64,000 bases of DNA from Pedobacter sp. (GTDB lineage Bacteria; Desulfobacterota; Desulfuromonadia; Desulfuromonadales; Syntrophotaleaceae): the NCBI GenBank assembly GCA_050253415.1, contig JBFWJC010000001.1:288001-352000 (forward strand), read 5' to 3'. The position numbers were made by a program, and so were the translations under genes. The notes below the pieces were generated by a model. The model was not told the DNA's origin, ran no database searches, and worked only from the letters and a program-made list of their open reading frames with translations. Below are positions 44,446 through 58,389 of the stretch, one piece after another; position 1 is the stretch's first letter; each line of letters starts with the position of its first letter.

Positions 44446-45417
44446 ATGAAATTTCCCGAGTACCGGGCACGTCGCACGCGCCGCACCCCGACCCTGCGGA
44501 ACATGGTTCGCGAGACCCAGTTGGCTGTGGACGATCTTATCTATCCGCTGTTCTGTGTCGAGGGCACCGACGTGTGCAATCCCATCAGCTCCATGCCCGG
44601 GGTGTGTCAGCTGTCCATCGACCGGCTGGCGGCAGAGGCCCGCGAGGTCTGGCAACTCGGTATTCCGGCGGTGATCCTGTTCGGCATTCCGGATAGCAAG
44701 GACGCCGAGGGCAGTGAGGGTACCAACGAAAACGGCATCATCCCGCGCGCCATCCGTGTCATCAAGCAGGCGGTGCCGGAGCTGATCGTGGTTACCGATG
44801 TGTGCATGTGCGAGTATACCGATCACGGCCATTGCGGCGTGATTCGCGGCGAGGAGGTCCTCAACGACCCCACCCTCCAGCTGCTATCCATGCAGGCCGT
44901 AGCCCACGCGCGTGCCGGCGCCGATATCATCGCGCCCAGCGACATGATGGACGGTCGGGTGGCGGCCATTCGCCGTGCGCTCGATACCGAGGGATTCGAC
45001 CAGTTGCCGATCATGAGTTATGCTGTCAAATATGCCAGCGCGTTTTACGGGCCGTTTCGCGAGGCGGCGGAATCGGCGCCCCAGTTCGGCGACCGCCGTT
45101 CCTATCAGATGGATCCGGCCAACCGCCGCGAGGCTCTGCGCGAGGCGCAGCTCGATGTGAACGAAAACGCCGATTTTCTTATCGTCAAGCCGGCCATGGC
45201 GTATCTGGATATCCTGCGGGATCTGCGCGAGCGGTTCGATCTGCCGCTGGTGGCCTACAACGTCTCGGGGGAATTCGCCATGCTCAAGGCGGCTGCCCAG
45301 CAGGGCTGGATCGACCATGACAAGGTGATGCTGGAGTTGTTGACCAGCATGAAACGCGCCGGTGCCGATCTGATCATCACCTATCACGCCAAGGAGGCGG
45401 CACGCCTGCTGGCATAA
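44446..45417 (+). CDS. hemB: Porphobilinogen synthase
   Basis: [28 protein letters not shown] and YNVSGE motifs. Confidence 0.97.
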
Positions 45418-45445
45418 ACCTGAACCTTGCAGGATTGTATGGACT

Positions 45446-46120
45446 ATGCCCGATACGCCCCGTGACGACAAAACGCTGACTCGCGTCGAAACCATTACCG
45501 CCGTAATCCATTACTATCGGGCGGAATCGGCGCGCGCGCTGGCCTGGCGCGAGCGTCTCGATCGCACCACCAACTGGGCGGTGGCAGCCACGGCGGCGTT
45601 TCTGGGGTTTGCCTTCAGCCACCCCGAGATCACCCATGCTGCCTTTATGTTCGGGCTGGCCATGGTCTACATCCTGCTCATCGTCGAGGCGCGGCGCTTC
45701 CGTTTCTACGATGCTTATGAATTTCGGGTGCGATTGCTGCACCAGGAGTTCGTTGCCAATCTGCTCAAGGGGCGGCTCGATCTGTCCGCCGAGGCGCCCT
45801 GGCGCACTGATCTTGCCGATGATCTGTTGCACCCCCGCTACAAAATGGACCTTCTGCATGCGGTCGGGCAGCGTATCCACGCCAATTACATCTACCTGTT
45901 CGGCGTGCTGCTGGGCGGCTGGTTGTTGAAGATCAAACTGCATCCCCTCATCGCACGGTCCTGGAGCCAGTACCTCGATCAGGCGGCGGTCGGCGGCCTG
46001 CCCGGCGTCTGGACTCTGTTGTTCATGGCGGTGTTTGCCGCCCATCTTGTTTATCTGCGTTACGTCGGGCAGCAGGCCAAAGGCGGTCGCGACCTGATCT
46101 ATCCCAGGCAGGGCAGCTGA
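45446..46120 (+). CDS. DUF2270-like membrane protein
   Basis: HYYRAE..WRERLDRTTNWAV and EARRFRFYD motifs. Confidence 0.75.
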   Translation: MPDTPRDDKTLTRVETITAVIHYYRAESARALAWRERLDRTTNWAVAATAAFLGFAFSHPEITHAAFMFGLAMVYILLIVEARRFRFYDAYEFRVRLLHQEFVANLLKGRLDLSAEAPWRTDLADDLLHPRYKMDLLHAVGQRIHANYIYLFGVLLGGWLLKIKLHPLIARSWSQYLDQAAVGGLPGVWTLLFMAVFAAHLVYLRYVGQQAKGGRDLIYPRQGS

Positions 46121-46169
46121 ACATGCTGTTTGCCATACCTGACACCATCTTCCATCGGAAACATACTGC

Positions 46170-47471
46170 ATGACTGAATATTTCAAGGATACCCTGGCCA
46201 ACGGACTGCGACTGGTCACGGTGGAAATGCCGCATCTGCACAGCGTCGAGATGGTCTGCCACGTCGGCGTCGGCGGACGCCACGAGCAGCACGACAAGGC
46301 CGGTATTTCACACTTTCTGGAACACATGCTGTTTCGCGGCACCCATGACTATCCCACGGGGCTGGCGCTGGAATCGGCTTTCGAGGCTCTTGGCGGCACC
46401 GCCAACGCCGCCACCGACGGCGAGACCACCTGCTACCATTCACGCCTGCATCCCGAGCACGTGGCCGAGGGCACCGCGATATTCGCCTCCCTGTTGCGCC
46501 GCACGCTGCTCAGCGATATAGACATCGAACGCCGCATCATCCTCGAGGAGGCCCTTGAAGACCTCAACGAAGCCGGCGAAGAGATCAATCCGGACAATTT
46601 GACCTGCAGCCTGCTGTGGCCGGATCACCCCTTGAGCCTGCCGACCGTCGGCACCCACGAATCGGTGCAGAACCTGACCCGCGAGGACCTACAGCAGCAT
46701 CTCGACACCTGGTACACCCCCGGCAATATCGTCATCGCCATCGCCGGCCGCGTCACCCGCGAGCAGGCCCTGGCCGCCGTCGAAGCCGCCTTCGGCGACT
46801 GGCAGGATCGCCCCGTGCCCACCGCACTGCCCGCTCCGACGCCGCTCGATAACGGTCCGTTGACCGTCTGGACGCGCGACGCCTCTTCGCAGATCCAGCT
46901 GCAACTGGCGTTTAATGTACCCGGCCGTAACGATCCGCGCACCCCGGCGCTGCGCCTGATCCGGCGCATCCTGTCCGGCAGCAGCGCGCGCCTGATGGTG
47001 CGCCTGCGGGAGCAGCTCGGACTTACCTACCATGCCGAAGCCAACCTCGGGCTGTACGACGATTGCGGCGTGTTTTCCATCGACCTCGCGGTGGCCCCGA
47101 CCAGCTTGATGCAGGCCTTGCAGGAAGTGCTGCTGATGCTGGACGATCTGCGCAACAACCCCGCCGGAGAAGAAGAACTGCAGCGGGTGGTGCGCACCTT
47201 CGTGTACGAACAGGAATTCAGCCTCGATCAGGCCGACACCCGCGCCGGTCGCTTCGGCTGGGGCGAACTGGTCGGCTATCCCCTGACCCTGGCCGAAGAA
47301 TGCCGCCAGGTGCAGGCCCTGACCGCCGCCCAGGTACGCGATGTCGCCGCCCAACTGCTCGATCCCAAGGCTCTGGCCGTGGCGTTTGTCGGGCCGTTTA
47401 ATGCGCGTCAGCGTAAAGAGGTGGAGAAGCTGCTGGCAGGGTATGTGGATAAGAAGAGCAAAGCTATTTAA
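46170..47471 (+). CDS. M16 family zinc peptidase
   Basis: HFLEH (HXXEH) motif. Confidence 0.92.
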   Translation: MTEYFKDTLANGLRLVTVEMPHLHSVEMVCHVGVGGRHEQHDKAGISHFLEHMLFRGTHDYPTGLALESAFEALGGTANAATDGETTCYHSRLHPEHVAEGTAIFASLLRRTLLSDIDIERRIILEEALEDLNEAGEEINPDNLTCSLLWPDHPLSLPTVGTHESVQNLTREDLQQHLDTWYTPGNIVIAIAGRVTREQALAAVEAAFGDWQDRPVPTALPAPTPLDNGPLTVWTRDASSQIQLQLAFNVPGRNDPRTPALRLIRRILSGSSARLMVRLREQLGLTYHAEANLGLYDDCGVFSIDLAVAPTSLMQALQEVLLMLDDLRNNPAGEEELQRVVRTFVYEQEFSLDQADTRAGRFGWGELVGYPLTLAEECRQVQALTAAQVRDVAAQLLDPKALAVAFVGPFNARQRKEVEKLLAGYVDKKSKAI

Positions 47472-48293: not shown

Positions 48294-48770
48294 ATGAGAC
48301 TACATATCCTTGTCCTTGCATTAGCTGTTTTCGTAGCAGTAAGCTGCTCAGCAGCGAAGCACGCCGACATTTTTGCTCAGTCAAAATGTAAGAAAGGCTA
48401 TGAGTATTACTTTCTTAACCGGGCCGCTTCAGGCGGTGACCTATTCGGGGTCCAATTGCTTCTTGAAGGCGGTGCCAACGTTGATGGACTTGGCTATGAA
48501 AACTACATCGAATTTGGTGGCGGCATGGAATACAGCTCACCGTTAATGGTCGCGGTCTTCGTTTACGCTCACGAAGCTATGGAGGGAGATCCTAAGAGAG
48601 TTGATCGTGCGTCTGTGCTCAAGGAATCGGAAGAAATGGTTGAGTTACTTCTCAAGCACGGGGCCAATCCAAATATCAAGGAAGGAGAAGGAGGCACACC
48701 GCTTGATATAGCAAAGCAGCTCAAGCACGAACACTCCATTCGGTTGCTTGAAAAGTATGGAGCGAAATAA
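48294..48770 (+). CDS. Cassette 2: exported ankyrin-repeat protein (probable lipoprotein)
   Basis: Signal peptide with AVSC; LLLEGGANV and LLLKHGANPN..TPLDIA. Confidence 0.85.
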   Translation: MRLHILVLALAVFVAVSCSAAKHADIFAQSKCKKGYEYYFLNRAASGGDLFGVQLLLEGGANVDGLGYENYIEFGGGMEYSSPLMVAVFVYAHEAMEGDPKRVDRASVLKESEEMVELLLKHGANPNIKEGEGGTPLDIAKQLKHEHSIRLLEKYGAK

Positions 48771-51166: not shown

Positions 51167-51229
51167 AAAACGCCTAACACTTATCAGGCCCCCGGCCGTC
51201 AAGAGTAAAAAATTCCGTTAACGCAAAAG

Positions 51230-51700
51230 ATTGCTCCTTTGGTTCTTTGACAAGCGACTGATCAAACAGGCTTACCGGTCTCTGACTTGGGCTTACCCTC
51301 TGGCTGCAGACGAATTCTGCTCCAAACACTTATCGAGGCTCTTTATGCAGGAGCCGGTATTCGTTGCCCCGGTACTTCCTGCCGCCTGGAAACACTTGCG
51401 TAACCTTATGCCGTCCCATTCAATACATCGGGGTCCATCCACCTTCGATGGCCGCAGTTAGGTGCGGGATCGGGGAAGGGGCAGAATCCGGCGCTGGCCC
51501 GTTTCGAGCATCGCACGAAAGTATGTGGGAGCGAGACGGATCTCCAATCAAAACCAATTGGCTGACGCTGGTCGACTGATCATGCGGCCTTGGTTGCGGA
51601 GTCTTTGCTCCAGAAGTCTGCGCTTCATATCGGCCGTTCTTGCGATCTATCCGTGGTTTGTGTCGCCAGTTAGACTCTCAGGCTGACCCGTCCCCTCCCT
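51230..51700 (-). ncRNA. Putative bridge/seek RNA of the IS110 element; ends approximate
   Basis: Structured region 3' of the transposase with segments matching the attC target (GUCUAAC/GUUUUG, ACCUAAC/GUAUUG) and the IS circle junction (GAUAAGUG). Confidence 0.7.
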
Positions 51701-52750
51701 TCAGACGACCTTACGCAGGAATCGCTCCTGATCGAAGGGCGCTTGATTTTTAAGCATGAAATAGACCGCGCGGCCCAGGCGATGCGCGAGGATCGCCAGC
51801 GCTTTGCCCTTGCCGTAGCGACTGGCCAGTTTTTGCAACACGGCTTGCGCCGGTTTGTTGCCTTTGAGCATCATCACCACCGCCTCACCGAAGGCCCAGC
51901 GCAGGTGTGCATTGCCGATCTTCTTGCCGCTGTGTCCATAGGATTTACCGTTCGATTCCTTGGCCGGTTTGACCAACCGGCAGTAAGAGACAAAGTCCTG
52001 CACACGGGGGAACCGCGCGATATTTTCGATTTCATAGAGCATCACCAGCAAGAGGATGCGGCCGACACCGTGAATGCTTTTGAGTAGTGCCAGATTGATA
52101 GGGTCATGGCCGACTGCGATTTTCTCCAGATGCCGCTCCAGGATGCCAAGTAGATCCTCGTAGTGCTCGATGGTCGAAAGATCGACCTCGACCATGGCGC
52201 GGACAATCGGATCCTGGAACTTGGCAGGCAGATCTCCACGCTCACTCGGCTTGGCAATCCGGCCCAAAGGCTCTGGCAGATTGTACTGAGTGGCGGTATT
52301 TTGGATATGGGCATAGAGTTCGGCCCGCTTGCGCGCCAGATGATTGCGGCGTCGCAACAGGTCACGGGTGGCGCGCATCTTTTTCGGGTAGGTGTAGGCC
52401 ACCGGGAAAGATCCGCCGCGAAGCAATACGGCAATTTTGTGGGAGTCGATCTTGTCATTTTTGGCCTTGCCGCCATGGATGGCGCGCATGTAAAGCGCAT
52501 GCCCGAGGACGAAATCGATCTCCTCGTTGGCACAGAGATCGGCCAGCCAATACCAGGTGAACATGCACTCGCAACCGACAACAAGGTCTTCGCGGTAGGG
52601 TTTAATCAGGCGTAAAAAGGCCTTTGGCCGCGTCGGGATGTTCTTGTGCAGGACCACCTCGCCAACTGAATCGAGGACACATACGAACATGGCACTGGCG
52701 TGTAGATCGATGCCGCAATAGAATCGGTGCTGTTTGGTGTAAAATTTCAT
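51701..52750 (-). CDS. IS110-family DEDD transposase/recombinase
   Basis: GIDLH, GCEC and KNDKID (DEDD); SIHGVG, ESNGK and GNAHLRWAF motifs. Confidence 0.95.
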   Translation of the reverse strand: MKFYTKQHRFYCGIDLHASAMFVCVLDSVGEVVLHKNIPTRPKAFLRLIKPYREDLVVGCECMFTWYWLADLCANEEIDFVLGHALYMRAIHGGKAKNDKIDSHKIAVLLRGGSFPVAYTYPKKMRATRDLLRRRNHLARKRAELYAHIQNTATQYNLPEPLGRIAKPSERGDLPAKFQDPIVRAMVEVDLSTIEHYEDLLGILERHLEKIAVGHDPINLALLKSIHGVGRILLLVMLYEIENIARFPRVQDFVSYCRLVKPAKESNGKSYGHSGKKIGNAHLRWAFGEAVVMMLKGNKPAQAVLQKLASRYGKGKALAILAHRLGRAVYFMLKNQAPFDQERFLRKVV

Positions 52751-52950
52751 GGTGCAGGTTCCTTTCTTTGAGAGGGTTTCGGGTTCTCAAAGGATACCGG
52801 ATGGTCCGGTATCTGGAGGGGGCCTGCACTAGTATCAAAACTTTCAAGCGGACAGGCGACACAGTGGCACTTTCCGAATAATGTCTACCAGTTTGTTTTG
52901 CGGTGGACTGCCGCTTAAAGCAATTCGTTAAGTGGCAAGAAAGATAATTA

Positions 52951-53886
52951 ATGGCATACGAATTAAATAAACGCTTAGTTGTTGGACTCGCCTCAAGCGC
53001 CCTATTTAATCTTGAGGAGTCTGATGAAATATATCGGACAAAAGGTGCCACTGCTTACCGAGAGTTCCAGCGCGAACATCAAAACAAACCATTAGAGGAA
53101 GGCGTTGCCTTCCCATTCATCAGGCGGCTCCTTTCACTCAATGAGTTGTCCCCAAGTGACCACCCTGTTGAAGTAATTTTGCTTTCTAGGAATAGTCCCG
53201 ATACTGGCATGAGAGTGATGAACTCGCTTGAATATTATGGCTTAGGGATCACAAGATCAATCTTTCTCGAGGGAAAGCCACCGTATGTGTACATTCCTTG
53301 CCTAGATATAAATTTATTTCTGTCAGCAAATGAGGCAGATGTAAAGCAGGCTAACTTAGCTAGTTATCCAGCTGGGCAAGTCCTAACCTCAAAGCACTTC
53401 GATGATCCAAACGATCATGAATTAAGAATAGCTTTCGACTTTGATGGTGTTCTCGCTGACGATGAATCTGAGACTATTTACCAAACGACGGGCGATTTAG
53501 ATGCATTTAGGGAACATGAGAGAAAACTAGCAGAAACCCCGCACAATCCAGGGCCACTTAAGGATTTTCTTGAAAAGATCGCTTACATACAAAAGCTTGA
53601 GGAAACACGGGCAAGTGAAGATAGTTCCTATAAAACTAAGATAAGAATATCAATTGTAACAGCAAGAGACGCACCATCACACAAAAGAGTAATTAACACT
53701 ATGAGAGCATGGGGGATTAACGTAAATGAGGCGTTTTTTCTTGGTGGCATCGAAAAAAGAAAAGTTCTAGAGGTGCACAATCCCCACATATTCTTCGATG
53801 ATCAAAAGCTTCACCTAGAGTCAGCGTCAGAGGTATTACCATCCGTCCATATTCCTTTTGGAATAACAAACAACAAAGTCACTTAA
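52951..53886 (+). CDS. Cassette 7: 5'-nucleotidase family protein
   Basis: LVVGLASSALF, LSRNSPDTG, LRIAFDFDGVL and PHIFFDDQ motifs. Confidence 0.88.
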   Translation: MAYELNKRLVVGLASSALFNLEESDEIYRTKGATAYREFQREHQNKPLEEGVAFPFIRRLLSLNELSPSDHPVEVILLSRNSPDTGMRVMNSLEYYGLGITRSIFLEGKPPYVYIPCLDINLFLSANEADVKQANLASYPAGQVLTSKHFDDPNDHELRIAFDFDGVLADDESETIYQTTGDLDAFREHERKLAETPHNPGPLKDFLEKIAYIQKLEETRASEDSSYKTKIRISIVTARDAPSHKRVINTMRAWGINVNEAFFLGGIEKRKVLEVHNPHIFFDDQKLHLESASEVLPSVHIPFGITNNKVT

Positions 53887-57780: not shown

Positions 57781-58389
57781 ATGGAAACGATAGAAGCGAT
57801 CCGTTCACGTCGATCTGTAAAACATTTTGAGGCAAGCCACGTTATGACCGCCGAAGAAGCTAACGAGATTTTGTCATTAGCTATTCTTTCGCCTACCGCC
57901 TTCAATATTCAGAACTGGCGTTTTGTTGTTGTCGATGATGCTGACCTGAGGAGGAAGATAAGGGAGGTGTCCTGGGGGCAATCACAAGTGACGGAGACTT
58001 CTTTGTTTATCGTACTTTGCGCAGATCTGAAGGCCTGGGAAAAAGAACCCGGGCGATATTGGGTAAATGCGCCAAAGGAAGTTCAGGAGTTTGTGATTCC
58101 GGCTATCGATAATTATTATCGGGGCAAGGAGCGGGTGCAGAGAGACGAAGCTATGCGCTCCTGTGGCATTGTTGCGCAAACGATCATGCTTGCGGCGAAG
58201 TCATTGGGGTATGACTCCTGTCCTATGGATGGTTTTGATTTCGAGAAGGTTGCACAGCTTATTCGTCTTCCGGATGACCATGTCATTGCTATGTTTGTAG
58301 CCATCGGAAAGGGCACGAAAGAGGTCTGGCCACGGCCCGGGCAACTTAGCCTTAATGATGTGGTCGTCAAAAATGTGTTTGGGGAATGA
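57781..58389 (+). CDS. Nitroreductase family protein
   Basis: RRSVKHF, SPTAFNIQNWRF and GYDSCPMDGFD motifs. Confidence 0.92.
   Translation: METIEAIRSRRSVKHFEASHVMTAEEANEILSLAILSPTAFNIQNWRFVVVDDADLRRKIREVSWGQSQVTETSLFIVLCADLKAWEKEPGRYWVNAPKEVQEFVIPAIDNYYRGKERVQRDEAMRSCGIVAQTIMLAAKSLGYDSCPMDGFDFEKVAQLIRLPDDHVIAMFVAIGKGTKEVWPRPGQLSLNDVVVKNVFGE

Follow-up and report, generated by a model that had tools for sequence, protein, structure and literature searches.

An IS1111-type insertion sequence in an attC array probably encodes a bridge RNA with three modules, two of which guide insertion

We analysed a stretch of 64,000 nt of DNA from Pedobacter sp. (contig JBFWJC010000001.1, positions 288,001 to 352,000; hereafter the window), in which an insertion sequence (IS) interrupts an attC site of a cassette array. 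A reading made from the letters alone had proposed that the non-coding region 3' of the recombinase gene (tnp) encodes a bridge RNA with two attC-reading target loops and one donor loop. All its coordinates and strings are present in the sequence, and the region that it put at "about 520 nt" measures 522 nt. We call its loops 1, 2 and 3 modules M1, M2 and M3. The element and its parts, as assigned here, are as follows.

51179..52836, minus strand: complete IS1111-type insertion sequence, 1658 bp, its ends taken from an alignment with a second copy and 15 close relatives
51701..52750, minus strand: recombinase gene, 349 aa, with a DEDD/RuvC-like N-terminal domain and Transposase_20 (Pfam, NCBIfam)
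52818..52836, minus strand: left end, ATACTAGTG and then the subterminal inverted repeat CAGGCCCCC (alignment of ends)
51179..51211, minus strand: right end, TTGACG (a -35-like hexamer), the subterminal repeat GGGGGCCTG and ATAAGTG (alignment of ends)
51510..51701, minus strand: M1, predicted target-binding loop, outer stem 51694-85 with 51542-33 (stem and flank covariation)
51405..51480, minus strand: M2, target-like internal loop, outer stem CCCUU..CCG.UCC with GGA.CGG..AAGGG (stem covariation)
51296..51404, minus strand: M3, predicted donor-binding loop in a multi-helix junction, stem AGGC/GCCU (covariation with the IS ends)

The tnp stop codon occupies 51703-51701, and the 522 nt from there to the right end (51179) are non-coding; a leader of 86 nt runs from the left end to the start codon. 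The recombinase matches PF01548 at 1.9e-15 and PF02371 at 7.9e-17 in Pfam, and it scores 178.6 bits against the NCBIfam model NF033542, 'IS110 family RNA-guided transposase', whose cutoff is 140. The subterminal inverted repeats CAGGCCCCC and GGGGGCCTG lie 9 nt and 7 nt from their respective tips. The element thus has the layout of the IS1111 group, with a short left end, a long non-coding region 3' of tnp and subterminal inverted repeats; PMC11208160 and PMC11187229 define the group by this position of the repeats. Judged by these features, the window element is an intact IS1111-type insertion sequence. It shares a DEDD recombinase, subterminal repeats and a (predicted) guide RNA 3' of tnp with ISEc11 and ISPa11, which have an IS1111 seekRNA or bridge RNA. 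Unlike in those elements, the predicted RNA of the 522-nt region has two target-type loops rather than one.

In the orientation of the IS, the junctions read ..GTTTTG|ATACTAGTG.. and ..GATAAGTG|TTAGGCG.. (the bar marks the insertion point here and below). Because TG is common to both junctions, the empty site would read GTTTTG|TTAGGC. The sequence-only reading had reconstructed this site from the window, and two further loci of the same genome back it: an uninterrupted paralogous attC (locus L003, ..ATTCTTGTTAGCT..) and a second copy of the IS, 79% identical, which sits in another attC at ATTTTG|TTAGGCT (contig C16, L002:1049-2725). The guide bases of the C16 copy differ from those of the window copy in all three loops. 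The part of the interrupted attC that abuts the right end is listed here.

51172..51178, plus strand: R'' box GCCTAAC of the interrupted attC, the remainder of which runs from 52837 to ~52935

The interrupted site ends in the R' box GTTAAGT, which precedes the next cassette. The insertion point, TTG|TTAG, lies inside the R'' box and there is no target duplication beyond the core TG; the IS1111 elements with a seekRNA or bridge RNA likewise have none beyond a shared core dinucleotide. Flanks of relatives carry GTCCGCTTGA. Like ISKpn4, ISPst6 and ISPa25 of the IS1111-attC group, the window element inserts in one orientation at the R''-proximal end of attC, in a flank of the type GCTTGAA...TTGTTAG. 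PMC13604230 places the insertion of ISKpn4, ISPst6 and ISPa25 at GAA|CG in ..CTTGAA|CGAATTGTTAG. Compared by this published table, the TTG|TTAG point of the window element lies 7 bp off, with GAA|CG to its left. The shift suggests that the window element belongs to an attC-targeting lineage other than theirs, or at any rate that its insertion point is not the same.

We collected relatives of the element from three sources: the best 80 of 322 loci in species genomes (recombinases 54-93% identical), the best 80 of at least 569 metagenome loci, and three plasmid copies from Vibrio campbellii and Alteromonas macleodii (L085-L087; recombinases 50-55% identical). Searched with a profile made from the non-coding regions of 14 close copies, 148 of 165 loci proved to have a homologous region, mostly at full length, and M1, M2 and M3 are present throughout these relatives, the Vibrio and Alteromonas plasmid copies included. 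A blastn search of the plasmid collection with the non-coding region gave no match. Going by the names given to its metagenome-assembled genomes, the clade ranges over Desulfuromonadales, other Thermodesulfobacteriota, Gammaproteobacteria, Acidobacteriota, Nitrospirota and more; a Pseudomonas plasmid relative, 34% identical, lies outside any integron. For comparison of guides with flanks, IS ends were located by pattern rules, which yielded left flanks from 120 loci and right flanks from 85, and the rest were dropped. Related copies are non-independent events: permutation across elements leaves relatedness uncorrected, and the controls by register and by foreign loops address composition only. 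Below, agreement is given as a fraction of positions, followed by the number of permutations that did as well.

M1 reads both sides of the insertion site. The 5' strand of the loop, ..GAGAGUCUAAC (GUCUAAC, 51675-69), can pair with the right half-site (G|TTAGGC) on the top strand. The 3' strand, GGUUUUG (GUUUUG = 51554-49), has the sense of the left half-site, and the handshake bases AU come next. Across relatives, the six bases before UUG in the 3' strand agreed with left-flank positions -9 to -4 at 0.420, versus 0.261 when permuted (n = 113 distinct pairs; 0/3000). The excess was confined to register 0, and at positions -7 to -4 the agreement was 0.45-0.63 versus 0.26-0.41. The reverse complement of the 5' strand agreed with the right flank at 0.650 versus 0.594 (n = 76; 0/3000). 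Where M2 disagrees with M1, M1 matched the flank at 160 of 327 positions (0.489), versus 0.337 for foreign loops (0/3000). The handshake covaries as well: AU accompanies a left end in AT in 122 loci, and in one locus AA accompanies AA. Relatives whose sites have changed show how far M1 follows its target.

L079, site GTATTTGAC: M1 matches 9/9
L164, site GTTATGCGG: M1 matches 8/9
L022, site GTTTCGAAG: M1 matches 7/9
L115, site GTTCCGGCG: M1 matches 7/9
L020, site GTAGGTGTT: M1 matches 7/9

Agreement with the left flank is partial, 45-63% at positions -7 to -4, which points to loose site choice or to many copies residing in imperfect sites. With both strands covarying with the flanks in register, M1 is, on this comparative evidence, the target-binding loop that loop 1 had been taken for.

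M3 reads the ends of the element. Its 5' strand, ACGCAAGUGUUUCC (~51402-389, including CGCAAGUGUU at 51400-391), is complementary to the left end; its 3' strand, AUAAGUG (51333-27, within GAUAAGUG at 51334-27), has the same sequence as the right end, with the handshake bases UU directly after it. The M3 7-mer equals the right-end 7-mer in 80 of 81 loci and does so through three variants (ATAAGTG in 60, ATAGGTG in 18 and ATATGTG in 2). The sole mismatch sets ATACGTG against ATATGTG, and L066, which falls outside the 81-locus filter, carries ATAGATG in both places. The M3 handshake is UU with a right flank in TT in 76 loci and UA with TA in 2, and UU faces GT in two loci. The 5' strand agreed with the reverse complement of the left end at 0.443 versus 0.398 permuted (0/2000), in one register only. 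The donor strands sit between the M2 stem, the M3 stem and a hairpin 3' of them; this fits a remark in PMC11208160 that the donor-reading bases of IS1111 elements often occupy a multi-loop, or multi-helix junction. By its covariation with both IS ends, M3 is the donor-binding loop, as proposed for loop 3.

The covariation of M1 and M3, reciprocal handshakes included, amounts to a complete guide pair as in IS621, where PMC13626964 describes one loop for both target strands and one for both donor strands, core included, with cross-matching handshakes. Unlike in IS621, the order of the strands is reversed in the window RNA, the region lies 3' of the gene, the donor loop is set in a junction where IS621 has a simple internal loop, and the extra module M2 stands between the two loops. 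A top-strand match that lies 5' of the bottom-strand match is also found in the IS1111 seekRNAs (PMC11187229).

The stems that close the three modules are supported by comparison. They were derived with RNAalifold from MAFFT alignments, and only closing stems were scored, the alignments being poor at the inner helices. In the M1 outer stem (13 pairs, 48 sequences), 96.1% of cells are paired versus 88.4% in shuffles, and 9 of the 13 pairs show double changes. In the M2 outer stem and the M3 stem taken together (15 pairs, 57 sequences), 97.4% of cells are paired versus 87.9%, with double changes in 8 of the 15 pairs. None of 500 shuffles reached either number of double changes. Sliding the stem partners by 1-3 columns reduced pairing to 23-53%, and one sample pair occurs across sequences as CG 18, UA 18, GC 11 and UG 7.

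The guide-like matches might be due to chance, the region being merely a structured 3' untranslated region or a terminator region. Two results lean that way. Folded alone, the window RNA is no more stable than its shuffles (z = +1.2), so that the structural support is one of comparison and not of folding energy; and Rfam has no family at gathering score in the window, with only noise at E values up to 10 around the element. On the other side, the covariation with flanks and IS ends is specific to one register, the M3 7-mer tracks three variants of the right end, and the closing stems covary. We regard a chance origin as extremely improbable. The proposal that an IS1111-type element carries an attC-targeting bridge or seek RNA is thus backed by the protein domains, the ends and the covariation.

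M2 follows the plan of M1: an outer stem, G-NNN-CUAAC, a short inner hairpin, N5-6-UUG-A, and the outer stem again. In the window, its 5' strand is G-CAC-CUAAC (51463-57), its inner hairpin CCAUC/GAUGG and its 3' strand GAUGUAUUG.AA (GUAUUG, 51426-21). The M2 stems and the preceding CUGCCCCU..CCCGA form the best-conserved part of the non-coding region, and M2 spans ~80-100 nt, the size of published seekRNAs (82-96 nt). A role of M2 as donor loop was also considered and dismissed, on comparison by eye with the two ends and since these are matched by M3.

The sequence-only reading had taken M2 for an independent second target loop, which would cover further attC variants or engage the other attC box and make the recombinase naturally multiplexed. 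Aligning the 3' regions of homologues bore out part of this. M2 is conserved, has a covarying stem and keeps target-loop anatomy, with CUAAC and UUG-A in nearly all relatives; loops 1 and 3 track flanks and ends in these alignments, but the variable bases of M2 carry no information on the flanks beyond that in M1. The M2 3' strand does agree with the left flank (0.320 versus 0.260 permuted; 0/3000), but within an element the 3' strands of M1 and M2 also resemble each other. At positions where M2 differs from M1 and M1 does not match the flank, M2 matched 92 of 259 (0.355), versus 0.330 ± 0.023 for foreign M2 loops (416/3000), and at positions -5 and -4 M2 was below chance. The three variable bases of the M2 5' strand matched the right flank (positions 5-8) at chance, 0.230 versus 0.240.

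In three lineages, M2 also stays behind when M1 is retargeted. In L011/12/22, L115 and L164, M1 reads GTTTCG, GTTCTGG or GTTATGC as the flank does, and M2 remains at GTTAG (CUAAC). Two sets of copies whose guides are identical have flanks that side with M1 at the near-core positions on which the loops disagree. M2 is unconstrained in its second handshake base (AC 43, AA 43, AT 22, AG 14, UC 1), and L073 and L081 have an M2 without CUAAC and UUG. A genome scan for sites fitting the M1 or M2 guides did not separate the loops, since it returned an identical score distribution for both. As for the second attC box, the right strand of M2 has UUG like M1, but the R' boxes of the array are preceded by CG. 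Comparison of M2 with the distal R' box gave an unconvincing 0.455 versus 0.415 (161/3000) on a crude set of 32 loci, 28 of them usable, in which R' was mis-picked in some, including that of the window. Thus, multiplexed attC reading is unsupported, because M2 predicts the flank no better than a foreign M2 and ignores the retargeting of M1.

Some results nevertheless count in favour of some role of M2 at the DNA, and part of them in favour of site reading by it. The M1 and M2 3' strands are alike in register only (0.385 versus 0.275, 0/2000; other shifts are near permutation), and this likeness falls at guide positions -7 to -4. Three lineages have an altered M2 5' strand that suits their right flank: L020/L079 (CUUAC with TA), L042/L083 (CCAAC with TTG) and the Vibrio plasmid copy L085, whose AUAAC fits the flank TTAT. 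(In L076, an M2 5'-strand change does not fit the right flank.) Against right-flank positions 1-4, the M2 5' strand scored 0.829 versus 0.814 (10/3000). The best-of-two-loops score was slightly raised for an element's own M2 over foreign ones (166 versus 158.8, 76/3000, n = 59), and 6 of 59 insertions fit M2 better than M1 by at least 2 positions, versus 14 of 59 the reverse. A mutual-information scan for any other RNA or DNA partner of the M2 variable bases gave nothing above background. On balance, M2 does not appear to choose insertion sites on this comparative evidence, although a minor contribution is possible; that it works as an independent target loop for other attC variants or boxes strikes us as improbable.

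The conservation of M2 and its likeness to M1 leave several candidate explanations: a scaffold derived from a canonical target loop, a low-specificity helper loop, or gene conversion between the loops. M2 could in particular be a working target loop of low specificity in a step other than site choice, holding the resident flank or the TTG|TTAG core while M1 holds the new target. A reaction of this kind requires two target loops, as in the 'direct transfer' pathway, where an RNA of the target loop alone works with the full bridge RNA. Its 3' strand is kept like that of M1 at exactly the four core-proximal guide positions, and its core-reading bases are conserved and partly compensated. In the Alteromonas plasmid copy L086, the 3' halves of M1 and M2 are nearly identical over ~17 nt, as judged by eye. 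(The actual left flank of L086, TTTTTTTG, matches neither M1 nor M2 beyond TTTG.) There are precedents in two reports: Sun et al. 2025 (bioRxiv 10.1101/2025.10.25.684509) describe joint action of the bridge RNA and a truncated RNA of its target loop, and Siddiquee et al. 2024 (PMC11187229) moved a mini-IS with nothing more than a seekRNA of 82 nt. However, M2 does not match resident flanks independently. The core-reading M2 bases are missing from the L073/L081 lineage, which is nevertheless represented by two copies in the set; L011/12/22 reside at GTTCC and GTTTC sites, with which M2 (GTTAG) cannot pair fully; and the 'direct transfer' pathway has been described for an IS110-group element, not for IS1111. 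We consider such a working role for M2 unlikely.

Overall, we think it likely from these comparisons that a bridge (seek) RNA of three modules is encoded 3' of tnp, with M1 and M3 as its guides and M2 setting no site choice. M1 would hold the attC target, with its 5' strand on the top strand of the right half-site and its 3' strand on the bottom strand of the left half-site, and its handshake AU would correspond to the opening dinucleotide of the left IS end. M3 would hold the donor through a 3' strand that copies the right end and a 5' strand able to pair with the left end, and its handshake UU would match the start of the right flank. Together, M1 and M3 may position the excised, circular element (right end, TG, left end) at the R'' box of attC, where recombination at TG would put the element between TTG and TTAG. 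M2, between M1 and M3, would be a paralogue of the target loop that keeps the core-reading CUAAC and UUG-A; it has most likely been retained to bind the recombinase or as a scaffold, or else it is a low-specificity helper target loop.

The model implies transcription of the RNA, presumably starting at a junction promoter and running across tnp, and binding of the RNA to the recombinase and DNA. No promoter-like site was found in the linear element. All 72 distinct right-end contexts (72 of 72) have TTGAC[A/G/C/T] at 18-19 nt from the tip; of the left ends, 101 of 128 begin with ATACT and 122 of 123 with AT. Joined in a circle, the two ends would give TTGACG, a spacer of 18 nt and GATACT, as read by eye. 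By analogy with the junction promoters known in the family (PMC11187229 and PMC12288879), we infer that the circle junction may act as the promoter.

The comparison assigns the guides for target and donor in an IS1111-type element, along with the two handshake dinucleotides; in IS1111 these roles have so far been less clear than in IS621. It also points to a second attC-targeting lineage, whose insertion point is inside the R'' box. PMC11208160 and PMC13604230 describe bridge and seek RNAs with one target and one donor loop, and PMC13604230 gives IS1111 RNAs in a short form of 82-96 nt and a long form of 148-172 nt. No description of a three-loop bridge RNA was found in the full text of the literature, figures and PDF supplements lying outside the search. 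Here, a third loop with the build of a target loop is retained across the clade, and this three-loop form appears to be new within the known kind of bridge RNA. A parallel is CazIS110-1, which, according to Sun et al. 2025 (bioRxiv), engages two target-loop units in a single transposition pathway. Its second unit comes from the same loop as the first, as a shorter transcript, whereas M2 is a separate, diverged loop in cis whose role is only proposed.

A bolder conjecture, which we put forward tentatively, is that of a three-loop RNA in which M2 holds the resident flank or the TTG|TTAG core, M1 the new site and M3 the IS ends. If this is true, the reaction would proceed with two target loops in cis and would have no counterpart among the described two-loop bridge RNAs. 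Any role of M2 at the DNA level would bear on excision and transfer by these recombinases and on the design of multi-loop guides; if M2 is a scaffold only, it would mark a part of the RNA that the protein needs.

Several relatives carry rearranged or partial copies. At L061 (512-821, 3044-3196), both copies have a 149-bp tandem duplication of the IS tail, in which the right end ..CCTGATAAGTG is joined to the sequence 3' of the internal donor-guide copy (GATAAGTG|TTTGGAGCAG). Either the DNA copy of the M3 right strand acts as a pseudo right end, or this is a slippage repeat. Solo 3' fragments with a complete right end lie upstream of full copies at L006:324-574 and L017:341-449. That the partial copy at L006 might start at the M2 right strand, as a pseudo-site, was considered and rejected, since homology extends upstream of that point. 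The metagenome contig of one relative has both ends and the entire non-coding region but skips 543 bp of the recombinase gene (window 51922-52466), and it is likely a non-autonomous derivative. Much deeper contigs of the same metagenome run hold only the last 35-60 nt of the right end, beside four different flanks.

The cassette array that the element interrupts runs on the plus strand from ~47.9 kb (47880) to at least 57.8 kb of the window. Its attC sites were read by eye from the intergenic stretches; they number 8, too few for a test of loop preference. Features of the array are listed below.

~48772, 49892, 50631, 51172 (IS-bearing), 53882, 54577, 55760, 57684, plus strand: R'' boxes of the array, read by eye
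48294-48770, plus strand: ankyrin-repeat protein cassette
52951-53886, plus strand: 5'-nucleotidase cassette
57781-58389, plus strand: nitroreductase cassette

No integrase was recognised adjoining the start of the array, where 46170-47471 encodes an M16 peptidase and 45377-46342 has no Pfam match.

The number of terminator-like sites in the region is no higher than in shuffles. The 86-nt leader (52751-52836, minus strand) contains two hairpins, GATACCGG..CCGGTATC and TTTGAGA..TCTCAAA, which are kept in the C16 copy; a weak Rfam match to PsrR1 at the leader (E = 3.1, opposite strand) was dismissed as noise. At the other end of the element, a 7-bp hairpin (GCCTGATAAGTGTTAGGC) with GTTTTTT after it is formed jointly by the IS right end and the attC R'' box (51189-51172, minus strand), a terminator-like feature created by the insertion.

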